A DNA stretch of 64,000 nt from Firmicutes bacterium CAG:95. GTDB taxonomy: Bacteria; Bacillota; Clostridia; Lachnospirales; Lachnospiraceae. A program made the position numbers and the translations under genes. This document shows, one piece after another, positions 14,568-60,743 of the stretch. The notes beneath the pieces are model-generated. The model made no database searches. It had not been told where the DNA came from and saw nothing but the letters and a program-made list of their open reading frames with translations. The DNA lies in assembly GCA_000438155.1 (NCBI GenBank), contig FR902981.1, positions 22,734 to 86,733 of the forward strand, given 5' to 3'. Within the stretch, counting starts at the first letter, position 1; the number at the start of each line of letters is the position of its first letter.

Positions 14568-14580
14568 TTATGTGTTACGA

Positions 14581-14612: not shown

Positions 14613-14735
14613 GACAATACAGCATAATTTTTTTTCTTTATAGCCTGAAGTATAACAAGGCAGGATGTTTAAGAAAGTATAATTAATACATGTATGTAAC
14701 TTGTAAAAATAAGAAGAAATGAAGGAGAAAGATTT

Positions 14736-15380: not shown

Positions 15381-15421
15381 TAGGAAAATTGACAAAGTAA
15401 AAGTAAAATGATACAATCTCC

Positions 15422-16159: not shown

Positions 16160-16194
16160 AAGGCTATTTTGATTTAGTAAAGGCAACGGTTAGA

Positions 16195-16245
16195 AACCTC
16201 TTTTTTGTTATGCTATTAGTAGAATGACAGAAAAGAGGTTTTTTT
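16195..16245 (+). promoter_or_regulatory. Hairpin plus U-tract between the regulator and the next gene. The right arm overlaps the RBS of the 16246 ORF, so it is a terminator or a translational attenuator.
   Basis: aacctcttttttg ... cagaaaagaggtt then ttttttt and ATG. The aagagg Shine-Dalgarno lies inside the 3' arm. Confidence 0.4.
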
Positions 16246-16974
16246 ATGAACTATACGACAGTAAACATACAAGATGAGCAGCAAACCCGGCATGAATTTT
16301 TATATGGATTGCAAACAATGGCCGTACTATTCAGAAACATAAGACATAAGGGATTTATGTCTGATAGCAGAGAAGGCAAGGTGGTTCTTAGATTTAGTCA
16401 TGAATGCAGTTCAGCCAAAGATTTTCTTTCTTATCTGTTAGCGGTTCATGAAACCGGGCAGGTTATGCTACAGCATGGCGATGTAATTGGCATTAAGATT
16501 AATGGTTCTATTATCTGCTACAGGTATACTGAGCAAGGACACACAAATAAAGATTTGCTGATTTGGAATTATTTTACGGAGCATAAAGAGTTTGAAAAGC
16601 GAGAAAAAGAGAGATATGTTACTAATCTCCATAAGAATAATCAGGTGCTTGATGTGTTGTCTGGTAAGGTCGTGAACATTGATAGTATTCAGTTTGCAGA
16701 TACACGCATCTGTGCCATTGATCAGGAATGTTATTATCCACATGGAGATAGGAGCAGCTTAATTATCACTGATTATTTTGTATATGAATTGAAAGATATG
16801 GGTATAGAAAACATAAATCCTTACCAAAGACCGTTTTGCGATATTAAGTCTGCTTTTATGTTTTTCCAGCATAATAAAAAGAAAGATAGGTATAGTCAGC
16901 GGCTTTTATTATTGAATAGAAAAGAATTGTATTTAGTACGGGACTACAGGCACTTGTTGACAATAGCATTATAG
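16246..16974 (+). CDS. Hypothetical protein (element cargo)
   Basis: 242-aa ORF with an RBS. No recognisable motif. Confidence 0.4.
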   Translation: MNYTTVNIQDEQQTRHEFLYGLQTMAVLFRNIRHKGFMSDSREGKVVLRFSHECSSAKDFLSYLLAVHETGQVMLQHGDVIGIKINGSIICYRYTEQGHTNKDLLIWNYFTEHKEFEKREKERYVTNLHKNNQVLDVLSGKVVNIDSIQFADTRICAIDQECYYPHGDRSSLIITDYFVYELKDMGIENINPYQRPFCDIKSAFMFFQHNKKKDRYSQRLLLLNRKELYLVRDYRHLLTIAL

Positions 16975-16986
16975 GGAGGTTAAGAT

Positions 16987-18855
16987 ATGGAACAGAAAAG
17001 AAAAGAAGACCTAGTAAATAGTGATGATATTTTTAAATATCAGTTATTGAGCAGACTGCAGGGTGACTGCGAATATTATTTAGGAAATGGTAATCGAAAT
17101 AAAAAGCAGTTATGGGCAGAGGATGAGCGTGAGCAGATAGAAGTGATGAAATTACTGTATAATAGCTTTGGGGATGAAAATAAGCCAGAATGGCTCTCAA
17201 TGACAGATATTGAAAACTATGAAAAGCAGATGGTAGTAGATATAACACTTGAAGAGCGTTATACAGAAGCTATGAGAATGACAGGATATGATCGTATTGA
17301 AACACCAACAGACAGTATGGCAACAGTATCCTTTGTTTTTCGTACAGCACCGGAGAGAAGGATAGATGCTGACGGATGGGAGGCATTAGGGGAAGAGCTT
17401 GAAGGTATGAGTCCAATCCTTGAAAGTGATAGAGCAAAATATGAAGATTTAATACATCCGAGTGGTAGAATTGCTTATTATACTCTTAACTTGGAAGGGA
17501 GTGGTATGGACTCTGACCTTAAACCTGTTACTTATTCAAATATAAAGGATGCATTGAGTGCCTACTTAATGTCAGATGCAGATGGTAAACAGTTAGGGTA
17601 CATAATCCATGGTGAACTGCAGTGCATGAGTCATTTTGATTATGTAGATATGAAGAATCATATTACATCCTTATCCGATCCGGCATTATATAATGAAGAA
17701 CTGGCAGGGAATGAAAAGCAAATTATTAGAAAATCATATTCTTCTATGAAAACTATTTTGGATAAGGATAATGTTTATTGTGCATTAAAAGCAGGCGTTG
17801 ATTACATAGAAAACGTATGTATAGGAGAGGTTGGACGAGAAAATACAGAATGGGGAGCATGGAGTGGAAGAGTGGCGAATACTCATCGTCCACAGGATTA
17901 TCTCGATATTAATATTATGGGATATGAGAGACCGCATCTGGTTATATATACTTTATCAGCAGTTCATGCCAATGAAATTGTTCAGGAAATGCAGTATACG
18001 GTTCACACCAATCCCGAAAGACTTGTGGAAAGTATAAGGCAAGGAACAAAAAATATTTCAGAAGAGATTGATGAATTTCTGCATATGGCAGTAGAAAAGT
18101 TAGATACGGATATTATATATCCTATGCAGTTTTATTCGCCATATACGAACAGAGAACTCACAGAGCATTATAGAAAATTGGAAAATGCAGGATATGATCC
18201 TTTACCGTTGAACCAGGAACAGGAAGTACAGGTGGTCACCCCGGACAAAATAAAGGATTTTGTGAAAAAGTATTATGATCATTATGATGGATTGGTTTGC
18301 ACAGAAAAGATATCTGAGGTTCTGGCAGTTTCCATTCAAAAGATGATTGATGCAAAACAAATGGATAACACAAAAGAATCAATAGAGAATGTATTATGTA
18401 AAGAAAGCACACTACATTTTATTGTTTCCAGAATGCCTAATGTGTCTCCGGTGCCGGAAGAAGTAAAGAATGATGTTGTATCATATTTTGAACAATCGTC
18501 AGGTCTTGCAAATTATAAGCCGGTTGAGATATGCAGAGTGTCAAATGATCCGGAAGATTCTCATTTATATGCGGTAATTGGGTATAACTCACAAATGAAT
18601 CAGTATGCATGTTGGACTTCATGGAACCAGGACCGGCATAGTTTAAATTATGGTCATCATAATCTTATGGATGAACAGACAGCAGTTGATACTATTAAGG
18701 AAAGGTTTAATGATATAACAGATGAAGTTCAGAAATATGGTATTGATAATACTTTGTTTAAACTTGTGTCAAGTGAATCTGAAAGAAGTAAGCCGGATGT
18801 AGAAAAGATAGAAGCAGATATTCCGGTAAAATTAAATGGAAGAAGAGGAAGATAA
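16987..18855 (+). CDS. Large hypothetical protein (622 aa) of conjugative-element cargo
   Basis: RBS gggaggt. No P-loop or nuclease motif seen. The N-terminal YLGNGNRNKKQLWAEDERE block resembles conserved domains of unknown function seen in ICE/plasmid accessory proteins. This is from memory, not verified. Confidence 0.4.
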   Translation: MEQKRKEDLVNSDDIFKYQLLSRLQGDCEYYLGNGNRNKKQLWAEDEREQIEVMKLLYNSFGDENKPEWLSMTDIENYEKQMVVDITLEERYTEAMRMTGYDRIETPTDSMATVSFVFRTAPERRIDADGWEALGEELEGMSPILESDRAKYEDLIHPSGRIAYYTLNLEGSGMDSDLKPVTYSNIKDALSAYLMSDADGKQLGYIIHGELQCMSHFDYVDMKNHITSLSDPALYNEELAGNEKQIIRKSYSSMKTILDKDNVYCALKAGVDYIENVCIGEVGRENTEWGAWSGRVANTHRPQDYLDINIMGYERPHLVIYTLSAVHANEIVQEMQYTVHTNPERLVESIRQGTKNISEEIDEFLHMAVEKLDTDIIYPMQFYSPYTNRELTEHYRKLENAGYDPLPLNQEQEVQVVTPDKIKDFVKKYYDHYDGLVCTEKISEVLAVSIQKMIDAKQMDNTKESIENVLCKESTLHFIVSRMPNVSPVPEEVKNDVVSYFEQSSGLANYKPVEICRVSNDPEDSHLYAVIGYNSQMNQYACWTSWNQDRHSLNYGHHNLMDEQTAVDTIKERFNDITDEVQKYGIDNTLFKLVSSESERSKPDVEKIEADIPVKLNGRRGR

Positions 18856-18856
18856 G

Positions 18857-19042
18857 ATGGATCAAGAGAAAGTCAGAATAATAAAGGAGAAAGAAGATGT
18901 ATTTTACCAGGTAGAAGGAGATATTACCCAATATTATGATTTAACTAATCTCAAAAGGAATCATCCTGAATTGAAGGTATATATTGAACAACATCAATTT
19001 GATTTACAAAGGCAGTTTTTTAGAAAAAAGGAACTGGAATGA
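18857..19042 (+). CDS. Small acidic hypothetical protein
   Basis: An internal ATG with RBS agaggaag. The upstream part of the listed ORF overlaps the previous gene. Confidence 0.3.
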   Translation: MDQEKVRIIKEKEDVFYQVEGDITQYYDLTNLKRNHPELKVYIEQHQFDLQRQFFRKKELE

Positions 19043-40258: not shown

Positions 40259-41140
40259 ATGAGATGTGTAAAAAAATCAGAAATGAAAAATCAGATCAGA
40301 CAGAAAACAATAAGTAAATTAATGACTGTAATCGTGAGTATCCTGCTGATATTGGGAGCATTCAGTGGATGCGGTTCTTCTAATACAGACAACAGGGAGG
40401 ATACAGCAGGAACGGAAGAGCAGACATCAGAGAGTGTATCAGAGAGTACACCGGAGGCAGAAGAAAATCGTACCGGACTTCAGTTTGAAACGGCAAAGGA
40501 TGGACGAATTGACTTTACGGTTTTACAGGAAGAAAATCCGGAGATCTGGGGATGGCTGTATATTCCGGGAACGGATATTGACCGGCCGCTTTTGCAGAGT
40601 GCTACATCGGATACTTATTATCAGAATCATATGGCAGATGGACAGGAAGGAGAGGCAGGGGCTCTTTATATCGAGATTCCGAATCAGACAAACCTCTGTG
40701 ACTTCAATACCGTGATTCATGGAAAGGATCAGAAGGAAGGAGATCTTTTCTATGAACTGCATAAGTTTGAAGAGCCTGATTTCTTTAATGAACATGAGGC
40801 ACTTTATATTTACACACCGGATAATGTATATACCTATAGTATTTATGCTGCCTACTATGATGAGGGCAGTGATATTCTGCGAAGATACGACTATACCACC
40901 TATCAGGGGTGCAATGCATATCTTGCGGATTACTATGACCGAAGAGACATGACTATGAATAAGAGGGATGGCTGGGAGGACATCACAGCCGGACATTTCC
41001 TTCTGACACTCGATGGAATAACAACAGGAGACCGACAGTTCGTTGTGATGGCAGGACTTGTAAATGCAGGCGTGGCAAGCATGGACCGTATGATATTCGA
41101 TGGAACCGACTTCGTATATGACTTTGAGGACGAAGAGTAA
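40259..41140 (+). CDS. Sortase-B-fold lipoprotein lacking the catalytic His and Cys (pseudo-sortase). Start taken at an internal ATG before a lipoprotein signal peptide.
   Basis: Signal and lipobox (MKNQIRQKTISKLMTVIVSILLILGAFSGC). Class B sortase landmarks (NPEIWGWLYIPGTDIDRPLLQ; DRQFVVMAGLV with the conserved Arg). The His position reads IHGKDQ instead of YGHN, and the TLXTC position reads LTLDGIT, so the Cys is absent. Confidence 0.5.
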   Translation: MRCVKKSEMKNQIRQKTISKLMTVIVSILLILGAFSGCGSSNTDNREDTAGTEEQTSESVSESTPEAEENRTGLQFETAKDGRIDFTVLQEENPEIWGWLYIPGTDIDRPLLQSATSDTYYQNHMADGQEGEAGALYIEIPNQTNLCDFNTVIHGKDQKEGDLFYELHKFEEPDFFNEHEALYIYTPDNVYTYSIYAAYYDEGSDILRRYDYTTYQGCNAYLADYYDRRDMTMNKRDGWEDITAGHFLLTLDGITTGDRQFVVMAGLVNAGVASMDRMIFDGTDFVYDFEDEE

Positions 41141-41213
41141 TGTATTGATATCTGCATCGAAAGATGTTGATATAAACCACACTTAATTTTGCAAGAAGGG
41201 AGGAATTGGTCCA

Positions 41214-41768
41214 ATGAAGAAACTTATTGCATTAGTATCTGCAGCAGCAGTTCTTGTAATGCCTATGGCAGTATGCGCAGCTCCTTCACCGTCAGCAGGT
41301 GCAGTAGTAGCAGCATCTACACAGAGCGCACAGAACAGCGCTGTTGAAACAGCAGCAGCTGAAGTAAGCATGTCTGTTGGTGAATACACAAACAATGCGA
41401 TTGTATCTACTCCCGGACTCTCTGCTGCTGACACTTTGCCAGTAGGACAGGGCGGAAAGATCATCGTTAATGGTGTAGCAACCAATATGACTGTTATCTT
41501 AAGAAAGGTTGACGCTGCAACCGTTAAATCTGCTAAGACAGCAGCAACAGGAAAGATCCTTAACCTCGTTAATGCGAAGCTTCCTGTAGCAAAAGGAAAC
41601 ACTGTAACCGTTAACTTCTATGTTAAAGGCTTAGCCGGAACAGAGAATGTTACTGTATTACAGCTTGTAAATGGTGAATGGGTTCCGGTTACCGTTAAGG
41701 AAATCAGACTCGACCATATCGTACTCGACCTGACACAGTCCGGTCCTGTAATGTTCGTTCAGAACTAA
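41214..41768 (+). CDS. Secreted Ala/Val-rich protein, function unknown
   Basis: Signal peptide (MKKLIALVSAAAVLVMPMAVCAAP). 184 aa. Strong RBS gaagggagg. Confidence 0.5.
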   Translation: MKKLIALVSAAAVLVMPMAVCAAPSPSAGAVVAASTQSAQNSAVETAAAEVSMSVGEYTNNAIVSTPGLSAADTLPVGQGGKIIVNGVATNMTVILRKVDAATVKSAKTAATGKILNLVNAKLPVAKGNTVTVNFYVKGLAGTENVTVLQLVNGEWVPVTVKEIRLDHIVLDLTQSGPVMFVQN

Positions 41769-41803
41769 TAATCTGAACAAAATTTAGAAACTAGTTTTTA
41801 TCA

Positions 41804-41845
41804 ATAGGTAATTGCGAAACTCGCTAGGCTCGTTCGCAATCTTGA
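41804..41845. repeat. 42-bp direct repeat, copy 1 (ataggtaattgcgaaactcgctaggctcgttcgcaatcttga), containing a 9-bp hairpin
   Basis: Exact 42/42 identity with 43979-44020. It overlaps the 5' end of the AraC-HTH ORF. Confidence 0.8.
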
Positions 41846-42285
41846 TTACGCTGGATCGAATGGCTAAAATCAGCGAAAAGATTAACCACTCACAAACGAT
41901 TGATGAGGCCATCGACAGCCTGTGGTATTTTTGGCTTCAGTACACAGCCGAACAATCCCTGCAGCATCCGGAAATCCGCAGGGCACTGGAGCTCATCAAT
42001 AAGCATCTGGATCAGCCAATTACACTGCAGTTCATTGCCAAACAGGTGGGCTTAAGCTCCCACTACCTGAGCCGCCTTTTCCACGCGGAAACCGGAAAGC
42101 CTTTTAATCAATACGTTATAGAGGCCAAAATGCAGCGGGCCGCGAAGCTCCTGCGTGAATCCACAATGAAGGTCTATGAAGTGTCAGACAGTATCGGAAT
42201 TCCCAATTACCGATATTTCGCGGCGCTGTTCAAAAAGCATTGGGGTATGACACCGATAGATTATAGAAAGAATGTGATGAAATGA
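41812..42285 (+). CDS. AraC-family HTH domain protein. It looks like a receiver-less remnant of a YesN-type response regulator. Start uncertain (TTG at 41812 or ATG at 41860).
   Basis: Only the two-HTH AraC DNA-binding domain is present (LQFIAKQVGLSSHYLSRLF...IPNYRYFAALFKKHWGMTPIDY). There is no REC or ligand domain. It is translationally coupled (ATGA overlap) to a YesM-like kinase. Confidence 0.6.
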   Translation: MRNSLGSFAILITLDRMAKISEKINHSQTIDEAIDSLWYFWLQYTAEQSLQHPEIRRALELINKHLDQPITLQFIAKQVGLSSHYLSRLFHAETGKPFNQYVIEAKMQRAAKLLRESTMKVYEVSDSIGIPNYRYFAALFKKHWGMTPIDYRKNVMK

Positions 42286-43982
42286 GAGTACGGAGAAAGC
42301 ATTTGTTCCACTGGGGACTCACCCAGCGTCTGTTCGTAATGACATCCACTATCTCCATTGCAGTGTTGGCCATCATGGCTTTATACGGCTATAATTCCGC
42401 TCATAAGGCCCTCGAACGGCAAATCGCCAGCAACATCTCCAGCTTGAACGACCGTACCCTCAGCTATGTTGACAGCTATGTAGAGAGTGCCCAAAGCCTT
42501 GGCCGTATGATTGCCGCGGATCGTGGAACCGGCATCAGACAGTCTGAGCGTATCGGTATCTTAATTAACACCTTCAGTCAAACCCTCTATCCCGTCGCCC
42601 GCACTATTTATTATATACCTGCCAACGGTGAAGTAATTTCCACTCGTCAGACTTATTATGACATCATGGGAAATAAGATGCTGCCGCTGCTGGCAGAAAG
42701 TGCACAGGATAGTCTCACCGGCCTCGCCTGGAGCCAGCCGTATCACTCTCCTGTTTCCGGTGACACCGTTGCCTTTTCACTGGCTGTAGAGGACCAGCCA
42801 AATGACGAAAAGGGTGTCTTAGTCATAGAACTGGATCTGGGTTACATCAAAAATGATCTGGACCGTTTTCTTCATAAAGGGAACCAGTCTTATCTGCTAA
42901 TGACATCAGAAGGGAACGTCATCCTTTTTAATCGTAATACAGATTTACTGCAATACGAAAACGACACCCTGCGCACCTCTATCGCACCGCAAATGATTGC
43001 CGAGCTGGCAGACTGCCCTCAGGGAATCTCCTATTTACCCAAAGAAGCTCCTTCCTTGCTCGTCACCCGTTCGCCTATCAATCGACTGGGTTGGTCGCTA
43101 TTCACGCTTGTCAACAGCGACAGCATTTTTGCGGCGTACAACAAAACCCTGACCAGGACCTACATTAACGCCGGAATCCTGATTCTGGTGGTTTTGTTGG
43201 GTGTATGTTTCTTCTTAAGCCGCAAATTCGTTTCTCCCATTCGTGAACTGGATGAGAAGATGAGCCATTTTTCCAAGACGCAGCTCAATGAGCCCCTGCC
43301 CGTCAAAAGAAGCGATGAGATCGGTCACTTGACGGAAAGCTATAATCAAATGCTCATGCGCTTAAAACGCCTCATCCGGGAGGTTAAGCAAAGTGAAAAA
43401 GAAAAACAGAATTACAAGATTCAGATGCTGCAAAGCCAAATCAAGCCCCACTTCCTTTATAACACGTTAGCCTGCATCAGAAGCCTGGCGAAGCAAAACA
43501 GAATGGAGGAAATCCGTGAGACAATCTCCTCTCTGGTGGGACTTTTGGCTTATACCTTCGATAAGACGGATGATTTTGTAACCATCAACGAAGAAATTCA
43601 GTCACTCAAAAAGTATATACAAATTCAGCATATGCGATATGGAGATGTCTTCCATATAGAATATCAGATCAGTCCCGATACCAGCGAGTGTTATTGTCCA
43701 AAGCTCACGCTGCAGCCAATCGTTGAAAACGCAATCTTTCATGGAATCTTACCCGCCGAGGAAAATGGAGCTATCCGAATCGAAACAAAGATTTACAACG
43801 AAGAATTGCACATATTTGTAAAAGATAATGGGATTGGATTTAGTGCAGACCGATTTGAGAAGATATTGGCAGGTATCGAGCCGGACAACAATTCCAATGC
43901 ATTCAATCATGTAGGACTTAAAAATGTAAACAACCGGATTATTCTTAATTATGGAGACACTTACGGTATTCATATTTTATAG
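42282..43982 (+). CDS. Sensor histidine kinase of the YesM/LytS family (TM-extracellular-TM, HAMP, His_kinase, HATPase_c)
   Basis: Two TM helices flanking a periplasmic-type domain. Phospho-acceptor block QIKPHFLYNTLACIRSLA and a GHKL ATPase C-terminus. Confidence 0.8.
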   Translation: MRVRRKHLFHWGLTQRLFVMTSTISIAVLAIMALYGYNSAHKALERQIASNISSLNDRTLSYVDSYVESAQSLGRMIAADRGTGIRQSERIGILINTFSQTLYPVARTIYYIPANGEVISTRQTYYDIMGNKMLPLLAESAQDSLTGLAWSQPYHSPVSGDTVAFSLAVEDQPNDEKGVLVIELDLGYIKNDLDRFLHKGNQSYLLMTSEGNVILFNRNTDLLQYENDTLRTSIAPQMIAELADCPQGISYLPKEAPSLLVTRSPINRLGWSLFTLVNSDSIFAAYNKTLTRTYINAGILILVVLLGVCFFLSRKFVSPIRELDEKMSHFSKTQLNEPLPVKRSDEIGHLTESYNQMLMRLKRLIREVKQSEKEKQNYKIQMLQSQIKPHFLYNTLACIRSLAKQNRMEEIRETISSLVGLLAYTFDKTDDFVTINEEIQSLKKYIQIQHMRYGDVFHIEYQISPDTSECYCPKLTLQPIVENAIFHGILPAEENGAIRIETKIYNEELHIFVKDNGIGFSADRFEKILAGIEPDNNSNAFNHVGLKNVNNRIILNYGDTYGIHIL

Positions 43983-51810: not shown

Positions 51811-53211
51811 TCATCGATTGCAGAGTTCCTCGGTCTGCTCATCTGCCTTCTGATAGCAGGCTGCAATCTCCTGCTGCAGCGAAGCCAGCTTCTGCATTTT
51901 CTTTCCCAAATGCTCTACCTCAGAAGCTACCTGTTTTAGCTGAAACGTCACCAGATTTCTGCCCTGCATGTAAAAGGGCATTTCCTTTTCATAGCTTTGG
52001 ATCTGCTCTCCCAGCCTTATCGTTTCCTCTGCTGCCGCAGATAATCCCTCACTCTTTGAAGCAAGTGCTTCATAATCCACCTCGATACAGATTCTGTCCG
52101 GTATTTCCTTCGTATAAGAATCTTCCCACAATGTCTTTCCAAGGAAGTTGAGTCCCCCTGCGGTTTTGGTTGTTGCATCCGTAATTGCCGGAATACCGGC
52201 AAATAAAAAGTGTTTTACATCAGCCAGGGTCGTCTTTTCCCCATTCAGTCCACGGGAGGCTCCACCTGCCGCTTCAATTCCCTGCATCACAACATTGGCT
52301 GCTCCTGCCCGTTCCTCCTCCGGCAGCTTCATAATCTCTTTGGAAAGCTCCGACGCATATTTTCCAAGGGATCCCTGCTTTAAAACTTCTTCATTTCTTC
52401 TTCCTGTAAATTGTGTCACCCATTTTCCTGTTGTCCGGTCCAGCACCAAGGTGGCAAACATATAAGTAATATCATGATATCCGGCAAAGTTTCCCTTCTG
52501 TACCGGAGTCCTGATATAGGTCACATGATTCTCCGGAATGATCTGGTTTCCCAACGGACTTACATAATCATTCTCTCCGTGAATTCCATATAACTTCTGT
52601 ATCCGGCCCTGATATTCTGCTTCACTGTATTTACGCTGGAATCTTGCATCCGCTTTCTCAGACATTCCCTGCCCATCCACGGAATAACAGCGGTCAATCA
52701 GATCTCCAAATTCTGTTTCCATAGTTACAAACTGCGCTTTATTTCCACCTTTGGAATGCCCGGTTACGATTACTCTCTGATTCTCTGTAAGCTGCGCCTT
52801 TCTTGCCACGGTATCAAAATAATCAACGGCGCGCTGTTGCTGTGTCGTGATTTCCTTCGTCATGCCCAGTCCATTATCCGGCCATTCACCATCTCCTGTC
52901 CCCCGGTAGGCAACAAAGATGCGGTCATTCTTCTCATCCAGAAAGGTACACGCCTTCGTTCCATGGTCAAACCCAAGCGTACTGCTCGCATAACATACCT
53001 TAAGGTTACCGATCTGCTCATCCTGCACTGCCTGCTCCAGAATCCGGTATTCATTCTGGTACGTACCTCCCGTTCCGTATTCCGGGACACCGGAAAGCTT
53101 CCCGATCACCTCTTTTAATTCCACCGGTTCCTTAGAAGCTTCCTGATATCCCAGATACATATAGGTATCCAGAATCATGCTGATCTCTTCTTCTGTATAC
53201 TTTCTACCCAT
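51811..53211 (-). CDS. Putative T7SS-secreted lipase/esterase toxin. N-terminal alpha/beta-hydrolase (Mbeg1-like/DUF2974-type, GHSKGG nucleophile elbow), C-terminal helical domain. This is the reversed-LXG, TslA-like arrangement.
   Basis: GxSxG-type motif VTGHSKGGNKAQFV in the N-terminal 300 aa. The last approximately 120 aa are predicted helical/coiled-coil (..TFQLKQVASEVEHLGKKMQKLASLQQEIAACYQKADEQTEEL). The start is 9 nt downstream of a WXG100 gene in the EssC operon. Confidence 0.6.
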   Translation of the reverse strand: MGRKYTEEEISMILDTYMYLGYQEASKEPVELKEVIGKLSGVPEYGTGGTYQNEYRILEQAVQDEQIGNLKVCYASSTLGFDHGTKACTFLDEKNDRIFVAYRGTGDGEWPDNGLGMTKEITTQQQRAVDYFDTVARKAQLTENQRVIVTGHSKGGNKAQFVTMETEFGDLIDRCYSVDGQGMSEKADARFQRKYSEAEYQGRIQKLYGIHGENDYVSPLGNQIIPENHVTYIRTPVQKGNFAGYHDITYMFATLVLDRTTGKWVTQFTGRRNEEVLKQGSLGKYASELSKEIMKLPEEERAGAANVVMQGIEAAGGASRGLNGEKTTLADVKHFLFAGIPAITDATTKTAGGLNFLGKTLWEDSYTKEIPDRICIEVDYEALASKSEGLSAAAEETIRLGEQIQSYEKEMPFYMQGRNLVTFQLKQVASEVEHLGKKMQKLASLQQEIAACYQKADEQTEELCNR

Positions 53212-53220
53212 ATCCTGCTC

Positions 53221-53535
53221 CTAGTTGATGATATTGGATTCCAGACCGCTTCCCTGTTCCATATTGCCGCTTTCCGCTCTCTGGTAATGACCGGCCATCT
53301 CCGTCAGATCCTGTGAATGCTCCGCAATCATCCGGTAAAGCTTATCCATATCCGTCTGCAGGGTTTTAAAACGGGTCAGAAACGTTCCGGACGCTTCTCC
53401 CTGCCAGATTCCCTGCAGTGAATCCACCAGGGTCATCATTTCTCCTGTCAGATTCTTTACCTGTGTTCCTGTTGTTGCAAATGTACCGGATGCCTGAATC
53501 AGTTTTTCCGGTGTAACCTTTAAAATACCTTCCAT
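53221..53535 (-). CDS. esxA: WXG100 (EsxA-like) protein
   Basis: About 100-aa helical hairpin protein with the central WXG motif (LQGIWQGEASGTF). Confidence 0.75.
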   Translation of the reverse strand: MEGILKVTPEKLIQASGTFATTGTQVKNLTGEMMTLVDSLQGIWQGEASGTFLTRFKTLQTDMDKLYRMIAEHSQDLTEMAGHYQRAESGNMEQGSGLESNIIN

Positions 53536-53558
53536 ATGCTGTATCCTCCCGATTTTAT

Positions 53559-53858
53559 TTAGTAACTGCGTGATGCTGCAATTTCTGCATTTCTTGCTTC
53601 CACCTCTTCATATCTGGCGGCAATTTCAAGCATGACCTCAACATATCGCTCAATCAGCTTCTCAAAGAGAAGCATCTGCTCCTTATCCCTTGCAAATGCG
53701 TGGTGAAAGGCTTCCTTGGCCTGCCCATCCCACATACTGCACAATTCCTGTTCCTGGGAATCCAGTTCATTGCACTTTGCCCGGAACTGACCGTTTAAGC
53801 CCCGTAAGTTTTCCGCCTTATTTCTTAATTCTCTTGAAGTAACCTCAAAAAATGCCAT
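53559..53858 (-). CDS. WXG100-like small helical protein
   Basis: 99 aa, W-x-G at CSMWDGQAKEAF. Confidence 0.65.
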   Translation of the reverse strand: MAFFEVTSRELRNKAENLRGLNGQFRAKCNELDSQEQELCSMWDGQAKEAFHHAFARDKEQMLLFEKLIERYVEVMLEIAARYEEVEARNAEIAASRSY

Positions 53859-53869
53859 AATATCCCTCC

Positions 53870-54184
53870 CTAATACGTTCTTAGATTTCCAATTGCTTCA
53901 TTGCATTTTTCGGCACAATACATAGCTTTTGCGTAACCCTCTACCATACGTGCCACCTTTTTTAATTCATCCGCTTCGCCGGATAATCTGGTACATAATC
54001 TCACCTCCCTTTCCATGAAAAGGTCTGCACTTTCTCCCATCCAGCACAGCTTCGTCTCCAACAGGAGCTGACAAATCTTTTCATCTGCCAATAGCCGGAT
54101 CTGGTCTGCGGTTGTCTGCATCTGATCCGCTAATTCCTGCAGCCTGTTAAACTGAACCTCAATCCATTCCTGCAGCATCCACAT
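53870..54184 (-). CDS. WXG100-like small helical protein. Start moved to the internal MWMLQEW, because the upstream extension is a K/R-rich out-of-frame overlap.
   Basis: W-x-G at CWMGESADLF. About 105 aa. Confidence 0.5.
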   Translation of the reverse strand: MWMLQEWIEVQFNRLQELADQMQTTADQIRLLADEKICQLLLETKLCWMGESADLFMEREVRLCTRLSGEADELKKVARMVEGYAKAMYCAEKCNEAIGNLRTY

Positions 54185-54455
54185 TTCCCCTTTCTGCCTG
54201 TTCGTAATACTCTGCAATCTGAAAAAGGCGCTCTGCAAACCACTTCGTTCTTTCAAACGGCCACCCCGCCGCTTCCAGTTCCTCTTTTGCAATTATACAG
54301 AGCCGTTCCATCCCTTTTGTTTCAAATTTTATGGCAAGTGCCATAAACCGTTCCACCGTTTCCTGATACTGCGCAAGAGCCTGCTCACATTCTTCGCTGA
54401 GCAATGCAGCTTCCTCCCGCAGATATTCCGAACGGACCTTCACCATTCCATCCAT
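54159..54455 (-). CDS. Small helical protein (about 98 aa) of the WXG100/partner class. Start taken at the internal MDGMVKV.
   Basis: Helical, E/A-rich. Lies between two WXG100 genes. Confidence 0.45.
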   Translation of the reverse strand: MDGMVKVRSEYLREEAALLSEECEQALAQYQETVERFMALAIKFETKGMERLCIIAKEELEAAGWPFERTKWFAERLFQIAEYYEQAERGNVDAAGMD

Positions 54456-54459
54456 ATCT

Positions 54460-54756
54460 CTACACTTCCTGTGCACGCATAATATTGTTTTGTTCCACAG
54501 CTGCAAGTAATATTCCCATCTGCTCTGCCCTGTCCAGAATTTCCTGCATGGCTGTCACATGCTCTGTATCCATCCTAAGCCATTCCATAAAGGTATTGAC
54601 CCAGGTGGTTCCTGCTTCTCCTTCCCAATGCTCCTGAAGCATTGCTGATCTTTCTTCCATCCATTTAAGAGAATCCTTTACCTTCATCATCTGCTGCCGC
54701 ATTTCCATAATTTCTTTTTTCAACATACTGCTGTTCATCATTACATGTCCGTTCAC
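54460..54756 (-). CDS. WXG100-like protein
   Basis: 98 aa, W-x-G at LQEHWEGEAGTTW. Confidence 0.65.
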   Translation of the reverse strand: MNGHVMMNSSMLKKEIMEMRQQMMKVKDSLKWMEERSAMLQEHWEGEAGTTWVNTFMEWLRMDTEHVTAMQEILDRAEQMGILLAAVEQNNIMRAQEV

Positions 54757-54829
54757 GGTAACCTTGTCCTTTCTACCCGGTTTTGTAATCCAATATCCAT
54801 TCTAAATTTCATTTTCAAGCGCTTCCTGC

Positions 54830-55075
54830 TCAGATCAAAACAAATGGCTCTCCCGGAAGAATACCCTGTGAGATCAGACTCTGTTCCGGATCCATCACCC
54901 GCTCGAGATCAAGTGCATACAGATAATAATTTTTTTCTTCAAAAGAAACCTCCTCCTTACGTTCAATCAGTTCTAAGCTCTGCCTGACAATTTCCCCTGC
55001 CGGCATCTCTCCGTTCCATTCAAAATCATAGCTTTCATTCAGCATCGGCACATAAAGATCTGCCATTATCATCAT
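54830..55075 (-). CDS. esaB: YukD/EsaB-like ubiquitin-fold protein of a type VIIb secretion system
   Basis: About 80-aa acidic protein (MADLYVPMLNESYDFEWNGEMPAGEIVRQSLELIE...) that starts 4 nt after the essC stop. Size and position match the YukD/EsaB beta-grasp protein. Alternative start at 55066. Confidence 0.55.
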   Translation of the reverse strand: MMIMADLYVPMLNESYDFEWNGEMPAGEIVRQSLELIERKEEVSFEEKNYYLYALDLERVMDPEQSLISQGILPGEPFVLI

Positions 55076-55079
55076 ACCT

Positions 55080-58000
55080 CTATTCCTCACCTTCTTTATA
55101 CGGAATGAGAAGCTGCACACTTCCTCCTCCCGATCCCTTTTTCAAAAATCCATTTCCCGGTGGCTCCGACCGGTTCAACAGGGAAAAATTCAATCCCTCA
55201 AATTCCAGTGCCCTCTGCAAGGATGCATTTCCTCCCAGATGAACTCCCCACTGACAGGAGGCCAGGGATTGAAACAATGGTGTTGCATATACTTCCAGAT
55301 CACGCTGCGGATGATACGCTCCGATCACCACTACATTCTGTCTCCGTTTTCCAACCAGATCTTCCCATTGCTGTGTCTTTTCTTTCTCTTCTCCGCAATA
55401 GGAATAAATCTGCCTTGTAAATGCTGCCAGATGTGGAATCATAAGCACAAGCCGGCTTTTCTTCTGCTGTTCCTTTTGCAGCTCTTCCTCCAGCTCCCCT
55501 GCATTCCGGCAGCAGATCACCTCCGGTTCCTTTATTAACCCGGCATGTTCCCCTTCGGTATCCAGAAGCAGTATTTTCCAGTCTGTAACACTTCTCACAC
55601 TGAATAACAGATGATCAATCAGACTGCTCTTTCCGGTCTGATCTGCACCGGATATCAGAAAACCGGAAAGCTTTTGAAGCTCCAGAATTTCAATTGCTCC
55701 TGTTTCCTTGTTATACCCCAGTGGTACCCGGCTGCCTGTTCCGTCATACTTCCGGCTCTTACGATAAACCGTAAGGAACTGCATAAGCTTCGGATATTCC
55801 GGGATCCGCACAATCCGGTCATAAAAGGGCTGCCCCTCCTGATAACCTGCACCCTCCTTATGAAATGCCAGGGTCTGAAACTCCAGAACCCTCTTTTCCT
55901 TTTTACATAATCCTCTTCCTGCAACACCGGCTTTCGGAATCGAAATCCCATGATACTGCCGCAGCACATCCCCATACTGAAAGGGATCGCTTAATTCAAG
56001 TGACAGTGTTGTCTTGATTTTATTCCAAAGCTTTGATTGAAAATCTGACACCCCATTCCCGGTCAGGATAAGAAATACTCCAAGACTGATCCCCTCTGCT
56101 GCCATGGAAAGCAGGAATTCCTCTTCCGCTTCTCCCAGATATCTTCGTAATGTTCCGATACCGTCAACCATGCCGTACAGAACCGGAAGCTTTCCCGGAT
56201 TCTTTCGTATAAAAGTCTTATAATTTTCTCCATTAAGTATCCGTTTCCTTTCACTCCAAAGCTGTCTGAACTGATAAAAGAATACCGGAAGATCCTTAGG
56301 TGTCTGCACCAGCGCAAGACAATGTGGCTGTTCCTCATACAAAAGGAACCCCGGCTGTTCCACAACCAGCAGAAAATATTCTGCCTCCATTGGTGTATTA
56401 TTCCTTGCAATCTGTTCCAGAATAAGGCGGATAAAATGAGACTTTCCTGTTGCCGGTCCTCCACAGATTCCCAGATGCCCCTGTTTCTGCGGTTCATAAT
56501 ACAATACTTTCTGGCACTGATTTTCCGGATCATCATATTTCCCGACCCGGAATACCTGTGCATGGCCGATTTCGTTTTCGGACTCTTCCTTTTCCTGTTC
56601 CTGGATTTTTTCCAGATAAATTACTTCTTCCAGCTCCGGAAGCCACAACAGTCCGGGCCGCCCATATCCATGCTGCTCTGCTATATGGTTTACATAATTC
56701 TCAACGCATTCTATAAGTGAGTCTGCTGTATCACTTACTTTCTCCTTTGGCAGTACGCTTCTCCTTCCGGTTTCCGAAAGAAGAGCCACAGTCTCTTCCT
56801 TCTGTTCCTCCGGCTGATATCTGCCGCCACAGTAGCCCGTCTGGAACAGCTGATATAATTCATCATTCCCAATCTGAAGATAGCATTGTCCGGGAGATGT
56901 CAGATAAGCGGCATCCGGCTTATGAAGCATATCCATACTGTCCTGCTTATCCTGTACACGAAGACAAAGATGGAAACGGGCATTGCTCCAGATCTTATCA
57001 TCTACCGTTCCTGCCGGCTTCTGGGTTGCCAGAATCAGATGCACCCCGAGACTTCTCCCAACCTGTGCAAGCGAAATTACCTCCTGCATGAATTCCGGCT
57101 CTTCTTTCTTTAATTCTGCAAATTCATCAATTACAATGAGCAGATGGGGCAATGCAGCCGCGGCTTTTCCTTCCCGGTAAAGCTGCATATAAGCATCAAT
57201 ATGGTTCACCTCGTATCGGGAAAAAATCCGTTGTCTCCGCTTATTCTCGCTGCTGATTGCAAGCATGGCTCTCCGGATCTGACCACCGGACAGATTGGAT
57301 ATCACTCCTGCACAATGTGGAAAATTCCTGACTGCATTTCCTGTTCCACCACCCTTATAATCAATCACAAAAAAGTTCACATCCTGCGGACTGAACTGGA
57401 TCATAAGGGAAAGCAGGTAGGTTTGAAGCAATTCGCTCTTACCGGAACCTGTTGTTCCCGCAATCAGTCCATGGGGGCCATGAAATTTTTCGTGCACATC
57501 CAGATATACCGGTGCACCCTGCATTCCTTTCCCAATCACTGCCTTAAGACGCTTTTCCGGTCTTGCTTCCTGCCAGCGGACTTCACAGTGAAGTTCTTCG
57601 ATCCGCAGGCAATCAAAGAGTTCCAGGAAATCCACATTTTTAGGAATTCCTTCGTTCTTTCCCCTTCCTGTCCTTTCCCATAACGCAAAGTTCCTGCTAT
57701 AGGAAGAAGCTTTCTTCCGGTCCATGGTATCGTACTGAACAGGAACGGTAATCCTTTTATCCTTTTCATACAGCTGCAGTTCCTGACGATCCTTCTGCCA
57801 GATCATCCGGCTGCGGTATTCCTTAGGAAGCTCCTGTTCTTTCCCTGCAATTCCAACTACCATAACCCGGTCCGCCTTTCCCTCCTGTAAAAGGCTTTGC
57901 AGAACTTCTCCCAGAATCAGCATGGGATCAAACAGAAAAATCAGAAAAGAAACCTGTTCTTTCTGTGCGGAAAGTTCTCTGGTAAGATCCGGGAGAATTT

Positions 58001-59489
58001 CAGCCGCTGCTTCTTTATCCCCGGCCAGAAATCGGACTTCTCCGCTTTCCGACCAGATATGCGGAACCCATTTCATACTGTGATAAACGCTCATCTGCCA
58101 AGGTATGGACGAATCAAAGAAGCAGGCCATACGCATTTCCTCCGGTGAGTGATGAAGCACCTGCTGCCAGAAAATCTGTAACACCCCATCATGCAGGTGT
58201 TTCTCTTCTCCTACTACACCAAGCCGGGAATTCTCCCGGAAGTCCACACCAACCGGTACCTCCTCCAGATACTGAAACCTCTTCCATAAGGCTTCTGCCT
58301 CCTCTTCCATCGAATCCTTTACGAAAACCTTCCTTTCCTCCGGAAGCTTCAGTCTTACAGGAAAATCCTGTCTTCCTGTTCCAAGACGTGTAAACCAGAA
58401 ATCCAGATCAGCTTCATACCGGTTCCAGTTCAATATCAGAAGCCGGTTCTCTGCATAATACTCCGGAACCGCCGGATATCTTCGATGCCAAAGCCCAGCT
58501 CCCTTCTGTGCTAACATCTGCAGCTCTGCTTCCAGTTTTCCCAGATATTCCCGGTACTGGATGATTCTTTCCCTGTTACTCCTTTGCTCCTCTCGACGAC
58601 TGGCCAGCCGGTTTGTAATCCCCCAGAATACTCCAAGCAATGCACTGCATACTCCTGCTGCCAATGTCACATACCGATAGTTGTTTCCTGTTCCATTCGA
58701 AATTCTGCTTCCAAGAAGACTCATCATCAGAATTGGAAAAACCATTGTAACCGATGGGCCTATGGACAGAATCCACGGCGTCTGCGAAGTCTCCTTTTTC
58801 TGTGGTGGACTTAAGACCTCTCTTTCCTGTTCTTCCGGTAAACAAACCTGTTCCGGAATTTTCTGTATGGAGCGTGACACCATTACCGCCCCTGCCCTTT
58901 GCTGTAATTCCTTCCCCGTAAATCCACTGTCCATCACCCGGCATTCTCCAACCAGTGGAACATAAATGAGATATGGGGGAAGAAATTGCATGGAAAGACC
59001 GTATAGCTGCAGGGAATCTCCCTTCTCAAGAATGGTACTTTCCTGCGCTCTTCTTCCGTTATGATATACTCCATCACCGCCAAGATTATGGAGAACACAA
59101 TTTTCGCCTTCCATAACCAGTACGGCATGTCGGCCTCTGACACTGGAATGAAACTGGTAACAGATTCTGTTTTCATAATCACTTCCCAAAGTCACCAAGG
59201 CTTCGGCTTCCAGACGGATTCTCCCTGCGGGAGCCAATCTATGTACAGGCCCCTGCCTGCTGATCAGTACCTTTTCTTCAACCTCAGAATCCGGTAACAG
59301 CAATGAATCCGATAACATGGGATGGGTATTTACCAGAAAGCTTCCCTGCTGATAATTCAGACAGATTTTCTGTCTCCGCAGATGCAAAAAAAATGCTGTA
59401 TCACCCATACAGGTAACATACTTCACAACAGATTCTGAGTCGGAAAAGGCACAAAAGAAAAAATGTTCTGCGTGAATCGTTTTCTTCAA
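55080..59489 (-). CDS. essC: EssC/YukB-type T7SS FtsK-SpoIIIE ATPase (two N-terminal FHA domains, 2 TM, three P-loop ATPase domains)
   Basis: FHA-like segments (LGSDYENRICYQFHSSVRGRHAVLV). TM pair. Walker A motifs GLIAGTTGSGKSE (D1), GGPATGKSHF (D2) and SGADQTGKSSL (D3). Walker B VIDEFAEL. 1469 aa. Confidence 0.9.
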   Translation of the reverse strand: MKKTIHAEHFFFCAFSDSESVVKYVTCMGDTAFFLHLRRQKICLNYQQGSFLVNTHPMLSDSLLLPDSEVEEKVLISRQGPVHRLAPAGRIRLEAEALVTLGSDYENRICYQFHSSVRGRHAVLVMEGENCVLHNLGGDGVYHNGRRAQESTILEKGDSLQLYGLSMQFLPPYLIYVPLVGECRVMDSGFTGKELQQRAGAVMVSRSIQKIPEQVCLPEEQEREVLSPPQKKETSQTPWILSIGPSVTMVFPILMMSLLGSRISNGTGNNYRYVTLAAGVCSALLGVFWGITNRLASRREEQRSNRERIIQYREYLGKLEAELQMLAQKGAGLWHRRYPAVPEYYAENRLLILNWNRYEADLDFWFTRLGTGRQDFPVRLKLPEERKVFVKDSMEEEAEALWKRFQYLEEVPVGVDFRENSRLGVVGEEKHLHDGVLQIFWQQVLHHSPEEMRMACFFDSSIPWQMSVYHSMKWVPHIWSESGEVRFLAGDKEAAAEILPDLTRELSAQKEQVSFLIFLFDPMLILGEVLQSLLQEGKADRVMVVGIAGKEQELPKEYRSRMIWQKDRQELQLYEKDKRITVPVQYDTMDRKKASSYSRNFALWERTGRGKNEGIPKNVDFLELFDCLRIEELHCEVRWQEARPEKRLKAVIGKGMQGAPVYLDVHEKFHGPHGLIAGTTGSGKSELLQTYLLSLMIQFSPQDVNFFVIDYKGGGTGNAVRNFPHCAGVISNLSGGQIRRAMLAISSENKRRQRIFSRYEVNHIDAYMQLYREGKAAAALPHLLIVIDEFAELKKEEPEFMQEVISLAQVGRSLGVHLILATQKPAGTVDDKIWSNARFHLCLRVQDKQDSMDMLHKPDAAYLTSPGQCYLQIGNDELYQLFQTGYCGGRYQPEEQKEETVALLSETGRRSVLPKEKVSDTADSLIECVENYVNHIAEQHGYGRPGLLWLPELEEVIYLEKIQEQEKEESENEIGHAQVFRVGKYDDPENQCQKVLYYEPQKQGHLGICGGPATGKSHFIRLILEQIARNNTPMEAEYFLLVVEQPGFLLYEEQPHCLALVQTPKDLPVFFYQFRQLWSERKRILNGENYKTFIRKNPGKLPVLYGMVDGIGTLRRYLGEAEEEFLLSMAAEGISLGVFLILTGNGVSDFQSKLWNKIKTTLSLELSDPFQYGDVLRQYHGISIPKAGVAGRGLCKKEKRVLEFQTLAFHKEGAGYQEGQPFYDRIVRIPEYPKLMQFLTVYRKSRKYDGTGSRVPLGYNKETGAIEILELQKLSGFLISGADQTGKSSLIDHLLFSVRSVTDWKILLLDTEGEHAGLIKEPEVICCRNAGELEEELQKEQQKKSRLVLMIPHLAAFTRQIYSYCGEEKEKTQQWEDLVGKRRQNVVVIGAYHPQRDLEVYATPLFQSLASCQWGVHLGGNASLQRALEFEGLNFSLLNRSEPPGNGFLKKGSGGGSVQLLIPYKEGEE

Positions 59490-59886
59490 ATAGCACCTCT
59501 TTTATTCTTTCGTGAAAATATTAGATGTCATAAAAACTAATAAAAGATGAAAGGATATGTTAATCGATCAACAATGAATTCATAAGTTATTATGTAAGAT
59601 AACAGATTTGGCATTTCACGTCAAGATGTTTTTGGTAAATTTAAACAATTATTTTACCAGATTAGTTTTATAATTTGGTTATTATCACGATACCTTATCC
59701 CTCTCACTAAACGCATGCTGCGCCTCCGGCTTGCATTCCTTAAGTGTTCCGGACTGGTTCGCACTCAAAATGATCCACTGAATCATTTTCTCATATGCAT
59801 GGCAACAAAAAAACAGACACACCCATTTAAGATGTGCCTGCACTTTCTCAGATTATAAAGCCAATTAAACGTCCTTCCGGTAAAAC

Positions 59887-60615
59887 CTAAAAATAGGAAT
59901 TAAAAATATTACCGGAAGCATAGGTATTACTGTAAGTTCCCTTCGTTGTATAGGTATTTGCCTTTGCTGCTTCCTGTGTTGCTGCAAAATCGATAAAGGA
60001 AGACTGGGAAGATACTCTGGATGCATAAGAATAACTTCCGCTAAACAAAGTCTTCACGGTGTTTGCATCTGCCTTTGCAAAAGCATCCTTGTCAAGTGTC
60101 AGTGTATCGTCCTTACCAATGGTAATACCTGCCTGACCCAACAGCTTCTGATTGGACTCTGTCATGTTCTTTAAGGTATCTACACGCTTCGTGATACTGT
60201 CGGAAGCGGACTTGGCAGACCCTTCAATCAGCTTGTTATAATTGGTTACAAAACTGTCTACCGCTTTATAAATCTCATCCTGACTCTTACTGAATACAGA
60301 ATCCTTACCTGTATTCGTTAACTGATCTGCAGAACTCTTCAAACTCTCTGATGCCGTCTGGATCTGCTTCAAGGTCTCTGCAGAATCCTTGGATGTGGAG
60401 AGTGTTTTCTTCTTTTCATCTACAATAGAAGCAGCTTCCTTGCTGATCTTGTTACCTTTGCCATAATAGGCCTTCATCAGCTTGCCATAGCTTCCATTCT
60501 TAATGCTCATGTAATCGGAAAGAAAATTTAAATTAGAATTTCCTGACATACTCTGAAACAAAAAAGAATAATTCTGCTTCATACCGGTATATCCCATGTT
60601 CAATCGTACTCCCAT
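59887..60615 (-). CDS. S/T/K-rich hydrophilic protein of unknown function upstream of essC, with its own terminator-like region. Start at the internal ATG with RBS.
   Basis: No TM or signal peptide. Low-complexity. Separated from essC by about 400 nt. Confidence 0.35.
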   Translation of the reverse strand: MGVRLNMGYTGMKQNYSFLFQSMSGNSNLNFLSDYMSIKNGSYGKLMKAYYGKGNKISKEAASIVDEKKKTLSTSKDSAETLKQIQTASESLKSSADQLTNTGKDSVFSKSQDEIYKAVDSFVTNYNKLIEGSAKSASDSITKRVDTLKNMTESNQKLLGQAGITIGKDDTLTLDKDAFAKADANTVKTLFSGSYSYASRVSSQSSFIDFAATQEAAKANTYTTKGTYSNTYASGNIFNSYF

Positions 60616-60743
60616 ATGACTTCCCTGCCTTTCCATACGCTAATTATATATTAGCAAAATAATCGGTAAAATACAATCCGATTTACGCAATTCATGTAAA
60701 AAAATACGCAATATCTGATAGGCATACCTTTCCTCCGTATGTT

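Follow-up and report, generated by a model that had tools for sequence, protein, structure and literature searches.

Can a type VII secretion system (T7SS) be centred on its ATPase, EssC, when the membrane partners EssB, EsaA and EssA are not encoded beside it? This question is raised by an eight-gene operon of Firmicutes bacterium CAG:95 (Lachnospiraceae; assembly GCA_000438155.1), and it was addressed here in a stretch of 64,000 nucleotides (nt), positions 22,734 to 86,733 on the forward strand of contig FR902981.1, which is referred to as the window and whose own numbering is used for all coordinates. The operon runs on the minus strand from 59489 down to 51811 and encodes, in order, essC, a yukD-like gene, five small genes (s1 to s5) and a hydrolase (accessions CDF07988 to CDF07995). 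We consider it probable (about 0.62) that the locus is a compact, EssC-centred and conserved T7SS variant with a reverse lipase-like cargo, that its partners are not linked to it, and that it falls outside the subtypes T7SSa to T7SSj. As part of that same reading, the eight genes would form a self-contained and vertically inherited operon.

A preliminary description of this DNA, made from the sequence alone, had listed the same genes, and every open reading frame (ORF) was found at the expected coordinates on the minus strand. The junctions from essC to the hydrolase gene measure 4, 88, 4, −20 (an overlap), 11, 23 and 9 nt, and prediction of transmembrane (TM) segments in all eight products returned EssC as the only membrane protein of the operon. 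For comparison with other genomes, a profile of the EssC clade was scanned against species-representative genomes, and the best 80 of 576 matches were taken as loci with up to 10 kilobases (kb) on each side and compared by ORF clustering. Ratios of nonsynonymous to synonymous substitution (dN/dS) were calculated against one of these loci (L014), whose EssC is 86% identical to that of the window.

EssC and its YukD-like neighbour

The first gene, essC (55080..59489, minus strand), encodes a T7SSb-type FtsK/SpoIIIE ATPase of 1469 amino acids (aa) and begins with a TTG start codon preceded by the ribosome-binding site AAGAGG. The protein passes the NCBIfam model for EssC (TIGR03928; 786.5 bits, cutoff 778.4) and matches PF01580, and the clade profile finds the cryo-electron microscopy chain of Bacillus subtilis YukB (9qks; 633 bits) as its best match in the PDB. 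Hydrophobic TM segments lie at residues 240–259 and 273–292, and three Walker A motifs, all of them intact, are present at 678, 1010 and 1281. Pfam calls no FHA domain in the EssC of the window. Residues 94–165 align with a Pfam-verified FHA family (hhalign 95%, E 2.6e-8), and an AlphaFold 2 (AF2) model of residues 1–225 (pLDDT 82.5) comprises two beta-sandwich domains. The top three Foldseek matches of this model are the tandem-FHA N-termini of YukB (9qks_H), Staphylococcus aureus EssC (1wv3) and Geobacillus EssC (5fwh), with a TM score of 0.64–0.65 against 1wv3 and 5fwh, which are crystal structures of the N-terminal domain only. The N-terminus (1–190) is thus modelled as tandem FHA domains. 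A complete EssC with two FHA, two TM and three ATPase domains, as originally proposed, agrees with the family match, the FHA assignments by AF2, Foldseek and hhalign, the TM segments and the Walker A motifs.

Throughout the EssC clade the canonical FHA motif GR is replaced by GS, with loss of the arginine that binds phosphothreonine, and phosphothreonine binding is therefore doubtful, as it likewise is in T7SSb. The dN/dS of essC is 0.15. At least 24 metagenome contigs from the human gut encode an EssC identical to that of the window, and the protein cluster of this EssC has 1551 members.

The yukD-like gene (54830..55075, minus strand) starts 4 nt past the essC stop, in line with the preliminary description, and encodes an 81-aa YukD/EsaB-like protein with a predicted ubiquitin fold. 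It scores 23.9 bits with PF08817, under the gathering score of 27; the positional orthologue in a related locus (L009) passes with 35.7 bits. A YukD homologue adjoins essC in 69 loci, and dN/dS for the window gene is 0.12.

Five small WXG100-like proteins

The two small genes closest to the hydrolase gene encode core WXG100 proteins. The first of these, s4 (53559..53858, minus strand; 99 aa), is EsxA/EsxB-like (TsxA1-type), carries WDG and a C-terminal YEEVE, and scores over cutoff with both PF06013 (37.4 bits) and TIGR03930 (52.3 bits). Its neighbour s5 (53221..53535, minus strand; 104 aa; TsxA2-type), with WQG and a C-terminal YQRAE, does so with 57.1 and 56.7 bits, respectively, and is named 'WXG100 family type VII secretion target' in the database. 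Both are well conserved, with median identities of 59–60% for s4 and 63–64% for s5 across 75 loci and dN/dS values of 0.075 and 0.058. The s5 protein is the probable heterodimer partner of s4.

The remaining three are more divergent. The s1 gene (54460..54741, minus strand) encodes 93 aa, or 98 aa from a GTG at 54756, with WEG at position 39; its 26.7 bits with PF06013 are 0.6 bit short of the gathering score of 27.3, and single-sequence tblastn detects it in only 7 loci, at about 30% identity (dN/dS 0.10). The s2 protein (54159..54455, minus strand; 98 aa) is helical, has no W-x-G motif and no Pfam or TIGR match, and ends in YEQAE; the family at its position is homologous to the WXG100 positions (hhalign 96–98%), and its dN/dS is 0.33. 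The s3 gene (53870..54178, minus strand; 102 aa, WMG) overlaps the end of s2 by 20 nt at its start. Its match to TIGR03930 is weak (18.9 bits), and hhalign links the third position to the fourth with 99.3% probability, as befits a paralogue of s4.

All five positions are mutually linked by profile–profile comparison with hhalign (77–99.9% probability), and a YxxxE motif follows helix 2 in s2, s4 and s5. Five helical, WXG100-like genes of about 100 aa had been described before and are upheld, although the count of three W-x-G motifs has to be raised to four (s1, s3, s4 and s5). The Pfam matches to WXG100, the lack of which was expected to weaken the assignment, are present, with s4 and s5 over the cutoff. 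By analogy with the Lap/Tla proteins, s1, s2 and s3 are proposed to be adaptors for the hydrolase.

The hydrolase cargo

The last gene (51811..53211, minus strand) encodes a 466-aa predicted serine hydrolase with a lipase-type triad, apparently a lipase-like cargo in reverse orientation. The gene itself was correctly described at first; its family match is limited to part of the Mbeg1-like/DUF2974 model (PF11187, 49.5 bits). Across 38 aligned homologues, residues S153 (in GHSKGG), D215 and H246 do not vary. In the AF2 model (pLDDT 87) an alpha/beta hydrolase domain (1–280) is followed by a helical linker (281–362) and a C-terminal hairpin made of helix 380–410, the turn PFYMQG and helix 419–465. 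Among solved structures, Foldseek places feruloyl esterase A and two fungal class-3 lipases (3o0d and 1tib) highest, and a sequence search of the PDB gave chance matches only. Furthermore, the C-terminal 100 or so residues align with the two core WXG100 families (hhalign 94% and 92%; E 1.7e-7 and 7.6e-7), such that YMKG falls on W-x-G and the invariant Y453 of YQKAD, a YxxxD/E motif, falls on YxxxE. The model and these alignments suggest a 'reverse' architecture, in which a class-3-lipase fold precedes a WXG100-like hairpin at the C-terminus.

Of the related loci, 56 carry the hydrolase, and its dN/dS is 0.089. Given this conservation across cassettes and this dN/dS, it therefore appears to be a dedicated part of the cassette rather than a variable or polymorphic toxin. 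No immunity-like gene of the DUF576 or DUF1433 type is found beside it in the window; the 9-nt gap between s5 and the hydrolase gene is empty, and none comes after the hydrolase.

The hydrolase in L014 is 90% identical to that of the window, and the best homologue in the database listing is only 74% identical because a clustering artefact, headed by an integrase, hides the nearest relatives. The 90%-identity database cluster of the hydrolase has a tyrosine recombinase (integrase) as its representative and integrases as most of its members. The 350-aa 'members' of this cluster were rejected as relatives, being integrases placed there by the artefact. A second, canonical Mbeg1-like/DUF2974 hydrolase of 419 aa is encoded about 5.5 kb past the right end of the window (L001:3167-4426) and matches PF11187 over its full length with 246 bits. 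Over the N-terminal 166 residues it shares 28% identity with the T7SS-linked hydrolase, and it shows no C-terminal hairpin to match.

Search for linked EssB, EsaA and EssA

Partner genes were sought among the precomputed Pfam matches for every called gene on identical metagenome contigs, which covered the window and 10 kb past its right end. No YukC/EssB (PF10140), EssA or EsaA family is recorded in that interval, and those related loci that have Pfam annotation showed none either. Conjugative-element and housekeeping genes make up the rest of the window. Across the 56 related cassettes with the hydrolase, there is no conserved additional gene for a membrane protein within 10 kb on either side of essC. 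A distant FHA-containing EssC (P0074) was found on a short contig only, with no partner genes on that contig. EssB, EsaA and EssA are not genetically linked to the EssC operon in the window, in the 10 kb beyond it or in the related loci.

These results agree with two points of the preliminary description. It had placed none of the three partners between the flanking xylanase and AraC genes, where no such Pfam family is recorded, and it had named an essA-esaA-essB set just past the window as the observation that would count against it; the 10 kb past the right end contain no such set.

Conservation in the Lachnospiraceae

The best 80 loci are almost all from Lachnospiraceae and show two essC architectures. 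The first, Type 1, comprises 56 loci with the hydrolase, from different Lachnospiraceae species, with an essC about 39% identical to that of the window. The gene order is essC, yukD, three small genes, two WXG100 genes and the hydrolase, and cultured strains (10-1, 64-25, Parablautia intestinalis and 1xD8-48) are included. The second, Type 2, has an essC that is 29–33% identical and occurs in Faecalicatena, Dorea and Coprococcus; it encodes an Ig-like protein of 1300–1780 aa, a Ser/Thr kinase with TPR repeats, an FHA protein and a LytTR regulator (for example in L075). Type 2 resembles T7SSj/e/i, and neither type is T7SSb.

The modules of the Type 1 cassette diverge at very different rates. 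Median identity to the window is highest for s5 (64%) and s4 (60%), followed by the catalytic domain of the hydrolase (53%) and the TM-D1 part of EssC (48%); it falls to 38% for EssC D2 and 35% for YukD, and is lowest for s1–s3 (about 30%), EssC D3 (29%), the EssC FHA region (27%) and the hydrolase hairpin (26%). On these sequence comparisons, s4, s5, the hydrolase catalytic domain and EssC TM-D1 can be regarded as slow modules, and the EssC FHA region, D3, the hydrolase hairpin and s1–s3 as fast ones. All eight genes are under purifying selection, with dN/dS between 0.06 and 0.33.

Some related cassettes carry additional lipoprotein genes. In 23 Type 1 loci a predicted lipoprotein of about 240 aa with a lipobox and no Pfam match (family F9; for example L007:16567-17307 and L029:16264-17010) is encoded between the last WXG100 gene and the hydrolase, where it is a candidate immunity protein. 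A different, acidic lipoprotein gene (family F19) lies upstream of essC in 14 Type 1 loci. About half of the related cassettes, and the window itself, have neither. Searches for F9 and F19 in the window and in three extension loci (L001, L003 and L005) gave no match, and profile searches of the window were negative too. Apparent F9 matches to window positions 53208-53363 were dismissed as artefactual, the ORFs behind them having been called too long and overlapping the s5 gene, and a grouping of F9 and F19 with a further family (F8) into one family was rejected at hhalign probabilities below 2%.

Two further variants were seen among the loci. In L057, L065, L070, L076, L080, L081 and L092, essC was called at only about 1160–1280 aa, and an ORF of 100–130 aa precedes the short essC in L057, L070, L076, L080 and L081, the copies in L080 and L081 matching the FHA2 region. 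Such calls may reflect an FHA module that has been split off, or frameshifts or assembly errors. Another locus type (L011/L012; essC 28% identical) encodes a 1931-aa Ig-like protein, an fn3 protein, a DUF6382-FHA protein, a ParA/AAA_31 ATPase and YukD, together with a 603-aa unknown protein, a WXG100 protein and a PARG–kinase fusion, and resembles T7SSe/f/j.

Limits of the operon and the rest of the window

Upstream of essC, on the same strand, lies a gene (59887-60636) for an S/T-rich protein of 249 aa, or 238 aa from an alternative start, and not of 242 aa as first given. The FliD_C profile (PF07195) matches 14 of the 22 members of its family, and the protein matches FliD in the PDB (5fhy, E 6e-4). 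A consensus scan and direct reading located an intrinsic-terminator-like hairpin with a 12-bp stem followed by a T-run (59813..59841, minus strand), which is predicted to end the FliD_C-like gene and to set the upstream limit of the secretion operon. The same approach located a promoter-like site (59596..59624, minus strand; TTGACG, a 17-nt spacer and TG-TATCTT) about 100 nt 5' of essC, a prediction from pattern matching alone. With a terminator-like hairpin and a promoter-like site between the 249-aa gene and essC, the operon is therefore taken to begin at essC. The position of the FliD_C-like gene varies among related genomes. It appears to be a separate transcription unit, with its own terminator, and to contribute no T7SS component; it was accordingly rejected as a 'missing partner'. 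The preliminary description had counted it as part of the locus: the gene is there, and the terminator separates it from essC.

Downstream, the stop of the hydrolase gene on the minus strand directly abuts that of a convergent AraC-family gene on the plus strand, which sets the limit at 51810/51811. With zero intergenic space, this junction leaves no room for a terminator. The GH10 xylanase gene and the AraC gene were confirmed as the neighbours of the operon.

Elsewhere, positions 232-19000 hold a conjugative-element block with a G+C content of 35–40%, below that of the rest of the window. It includes genes for an NlpC/P60 protein, a VirD4/TraG-type coupling protein (3366-5738), a 1300-aa coiled-coil protein (10665-14567) and an LPD11/LPD24 protein (16987-18855). 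At about 41000–42500 the cumulative GC skew peaks and the genes change from mostly plus to mostly minus strand, which may mark a replication-related strand switch. Rfam returned no RNA family match anywhere in the window.

Comparison with described secretion systems

A T7SS without EssB, EsaA and EssA is not a new concept. Eight subtypes that lack all three (T7SSc to T7SSj) have been described (Garrett, Higginson and Palmer, 2024; PMC11217815), reverse lipases have been reported at T7SSe and T7SSg loci in the same work, and the reverse lipases TslA (PMC10730906) and TslM (PMC13560087) have been shown experimentally to be T7SS substrates. The earlier judgement that a streamlined clostridial T7SS with a lipase cargo would be new either way was therefore too strong. 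What holds of that proposal is a type VII-like locus centred on EssC with no partners nearby; the C-terminal targeting domain and the conserved status of the cargo had escaped it. While the concept was published between 2023 and 2026, the present arrangement matches none of the published subtypes T7SSa to T7SSj. No prior description of the Lachnospiraceae cassette was found in the literature searched, and the accessible part of the supplementary text of PMC11217815 contains no Lachnospiraceae names.

The closest resemblance in the ATPase is to T7SSb. It is seen in an EssC with tandem FHA, two TM segments and P-loop domains that matches TIGR03928 and has YukB (9qks) as its best PDB match, in a separate YukD/EsaB-like protein (in the window below the PF08817 cutoff), in WXG100 substrates, and in small helical partner genes that adjoin a toxin-like substrate. 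However, EssB/YukC, EsaA/YueB and EssA are found neither in this cluster or window nor in the 56 related clusters; two distinct core WXG100 proteins (s4 and s5) take the place of one EsxA, and a single conserved cargo that of variable LXG toxin-immunity islands.

T7SSf and T7SSg both lack EssB, EsaA and EssA. T7SSg shares the 'simple' set of two WXG100 proteins, a YukD-like protein and an ATPase, with reverse lipases at some loci, but its ATPase is without FHA domains, whereas the present EssC has them, and it also has the DUF5050 beta-propeller protein TsgL and adjacent Tad pilus genes (PMC11217815). No DUF5050 or Tad family is among the Pfam matches of the window or its extension. T7SSf is likewise clostridial and has an ATPase with FHA domains, but includes the PPM phosphatase TsfF, the DUF6382-FHA membrane protein TsfJ and the TadZ-like ATPase TsfV (PMC11217815); none of these marker families occurs among the Pfam matches of the cassette or its flanks, and a more distant essC locus, L011, does have them. 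The membrane Ser/Thr kinase and the large Ig-like TsxI of T7SSd/e/j (PMC11217815) are both absent from the Pfam matches of the cassette, and the second Lachnospiraceae architecture, as in L075, does encode a kinase and an Ig-like protein. Two non-identical, adjacent WXG100 genes and YxxxD/E motifs after the second helix (in s2, s4, s5 and the cargo) recall ESX/T7SSa, but EccB, EccD, EccE and MycP are missing here and EssC is a single polypeptide with FHA domains.

The cargo is best compared with TslA and Tsl2/TslM, whose N-terminal part is likewise a lipase domain that carries a Ser-Asp-His triad and is related to Yarrowia Lip2 (fold 3O0D; PMC10730906; PMC13560087). TslA was modelled on 3O0D, and its triad S164/D224/H251 is spaced much as S153/D215/H246 in the CAG:95 hydrolase (PMC10730906). 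[quoted passage not shown] This likeness is one of architecture, fold and triad, taken from the published descriptions and not expressed as a figure of sequence similarity. In contrast to TslA and TslM, the tail here is a short (about 100 aa) WXG100-like hairpin with a YxxxD/E motif of its own, the window has no immunity genes of the DUF576 or DUF1433 type, and the gene is single-copy, conserved and fixed at the end of a structural operon instead of belonging to a polymorphic island.

Proposed mechanism and rival explanations

A working scheme can be drawn from these analogies. EssC oligomers would supply both channel and motor, and YukD would bind the cytoplasmic N-terminal region of EssC, as modelled on B. 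subtilis, in which YukD binds YukB (PMC12637312). The s4 and s5 proteins would form an EsxA/EsxB-like heterodimer, whose YxxxE tail would engage the C-terminal ATPase domain of EssC, and would be co-secreted. The hairpin of the hydrolase may bundle with at least one of s1–s3 into a rod-like pre-secretion complex that bears a composite signal, with s1–s3 in the role that Lap/Tla partners have for LXG toxins and for TslA/TslM; this composite signal would be presented to the fast-evolving D3 of EssC. The hydrolase would then be exported C-terminus-first and act extracellularly as a lipase, phospholipase or esterase. Its target could be the membranes of competitors, as for TslA/TslM, or host, dietary or envelope esters.

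Several points weigh against a dedicated, EssC-centred secretion cassette of this kind. Secretion, the protein complexes and the lipase activity are what we infer. Neighbouring housekeeping genes (Zip, FMN_dh, AraC and CspB) are also syntenic across the clade, and the co-occurrence of the eight genes therefore partly reflects vertical inheritance. The YukD and s1 of the window score just under their Pfam cutoffs. The partner check reached the window, the 10 kb beyond it and the related loci, and is compatible with unlinked essB, esaA and essA elsewhere in the genome. The tandem FHA domains are kept without a visible partner, although those of T7SSb bind the EssB pseudokinase according to work cited in PMC11217815, which hints at a further interactor. 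Finally, no immunity-like gene accompanies the hydrolase of the window, yet 23 related loci have a lipoprotein gene in that place.

In its strictest form, the proposal would be a minimal T7SS in which a tandem-FHA EssC is the sole membrane component and EssC, YukD and the EsxA/EsxB-like pair export a WXG100-fused lipase, with no EssB, EsaA, EssA, kinase, phosphatase or Ig-like conduit anywhere in the genome; we hold this form only tentatively. Partners encoded elsewhere would change the picture. A split but otherwise canonical T7SSb, with EssB, EsaA and EssA made from distant parts of the CAG:95 chromosome and assembling with this EssC, would suit an EssC that passes TIGR03928, has YukB as its best PDB match and an FHA fold like 1wv3 and 5fwh, the more so as FHA domains contact EssB in T7SSb (PMC11217815) and the gene search covered the window, 10 kb beyond it and the related loci. 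We consider it improbable: the partner genes are missing within 10 kb of essC in the 56 related loci as well as from the window and the next 10 kb, and the other essC loci found in Lachnospiraceae are of the kinase/Ig-like/FHA types, with no T7SSb among them. In described T7SSb systems, moreover, the partner genes lie within the essC cluster. It also seems unlikely that the operon relies on unlinked accessories of another kind, be it a second kinase/Ig-like/FHA locus (T7SSj/e-like) or an unrecognised membrane partner such as a lipoprotein. A second essC architecture with Ig-like protein, TPR-containing kinase, FHA protein and LytTR regulator does exist in the family, two subtypes can co-occur in single clostridial genomes (Garrett et al., PMC11217815), and F19 upstream of essC and F9 before the hydrolase provide lipoprotein genes in subsets of related cassettes. 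Yet no genome gave both architectures among the best 80 of 576 matches, which is weak evidence; F9 and F19 are without a match in the window or L001, L003 and L005; and the clade-wide GS in place of GR, with the phosphothreonine-binding arginine lost, speaks against control by a kinase. That the operon is a decaying remnant which no longer secretes is very improbable. The locally missing canonical partners and the near-cutoff scores of YukD and s1 would fit decay, but none of the eight ORFs is disrupted and their junctions are tight or overlap, the three Walker A motifs are preserved, every gene has a dN/dS of 0.06–0.33, the order is kept in 56 species despite about 60% divergence of the EssC sequence, and an identical EssC occurs on contigs from many human samples.

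For the conserved EssC-centred cassette that we favour, a separate question is what the cargo does. The presence of F9 beside the hydrolase in 23 loci, in a tilA-tslA-like arrangement, favours an antibacterial role by analogy; the lack of F9 and F19 in the window, the single copy and the strong purifying selection speak against a polymorphic toxin of the typical kind. An antibacterial phospholipase toxin like TslA/TslM, with an extracytoplasmic immunity lipoprotein and no housekeeping, dietary or host-directed esterase function, would account for the reverse architecture, the lipase fold and the triad spacing shared with TslA, and for the lipoprotein of about 240 aa directly upstream of the hydrolase, which mirrors tilA-tslA (PMC10730906). 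This is a serious possibility, but one we place somewhat short of even odds, as the window and about half of the related cassettes are without F9 or F19, conservation of the catalytic domain exceeds that of EssC (53% against 39%; dN/dS 0.089), the gene is single-copy with no array of immunity paralogues, unlike polymorphic T7SS toxins (PMC13560087), and the closest solved folds include feruloyl esterase A.

Implications

If the minimal form of the proposal is true, the operon would define both an eleventh subtype and the smallest T7SS core able to function, and this subtype would be widespread among the abundant Lachnospiraceae of the human gut. Should EssC, YukD and two WXG100 proteins suffice, they would form a natural minimal T7SS that shows which components make the channel, and the role of the EssC FHA domains and of YukD without EssB would become addressable. 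The co-varying, fast-evolving modules (EssC D3, the hydrolase hairpin and s1–s3) point to possible recognition interfaces. C-terminal or 'reverse' targeting, so far mainly staphylococcal, is placed by this cassette in a different secretion-system background. The findings extend the diversity of T7SS into the Lachnospiraceae, which are dominant and poorly studied commensals of the human gut, and in these bacteria the system seems to be devoted to a single conserved lipase-like enzyme and not to a set of polymorphic toxins.

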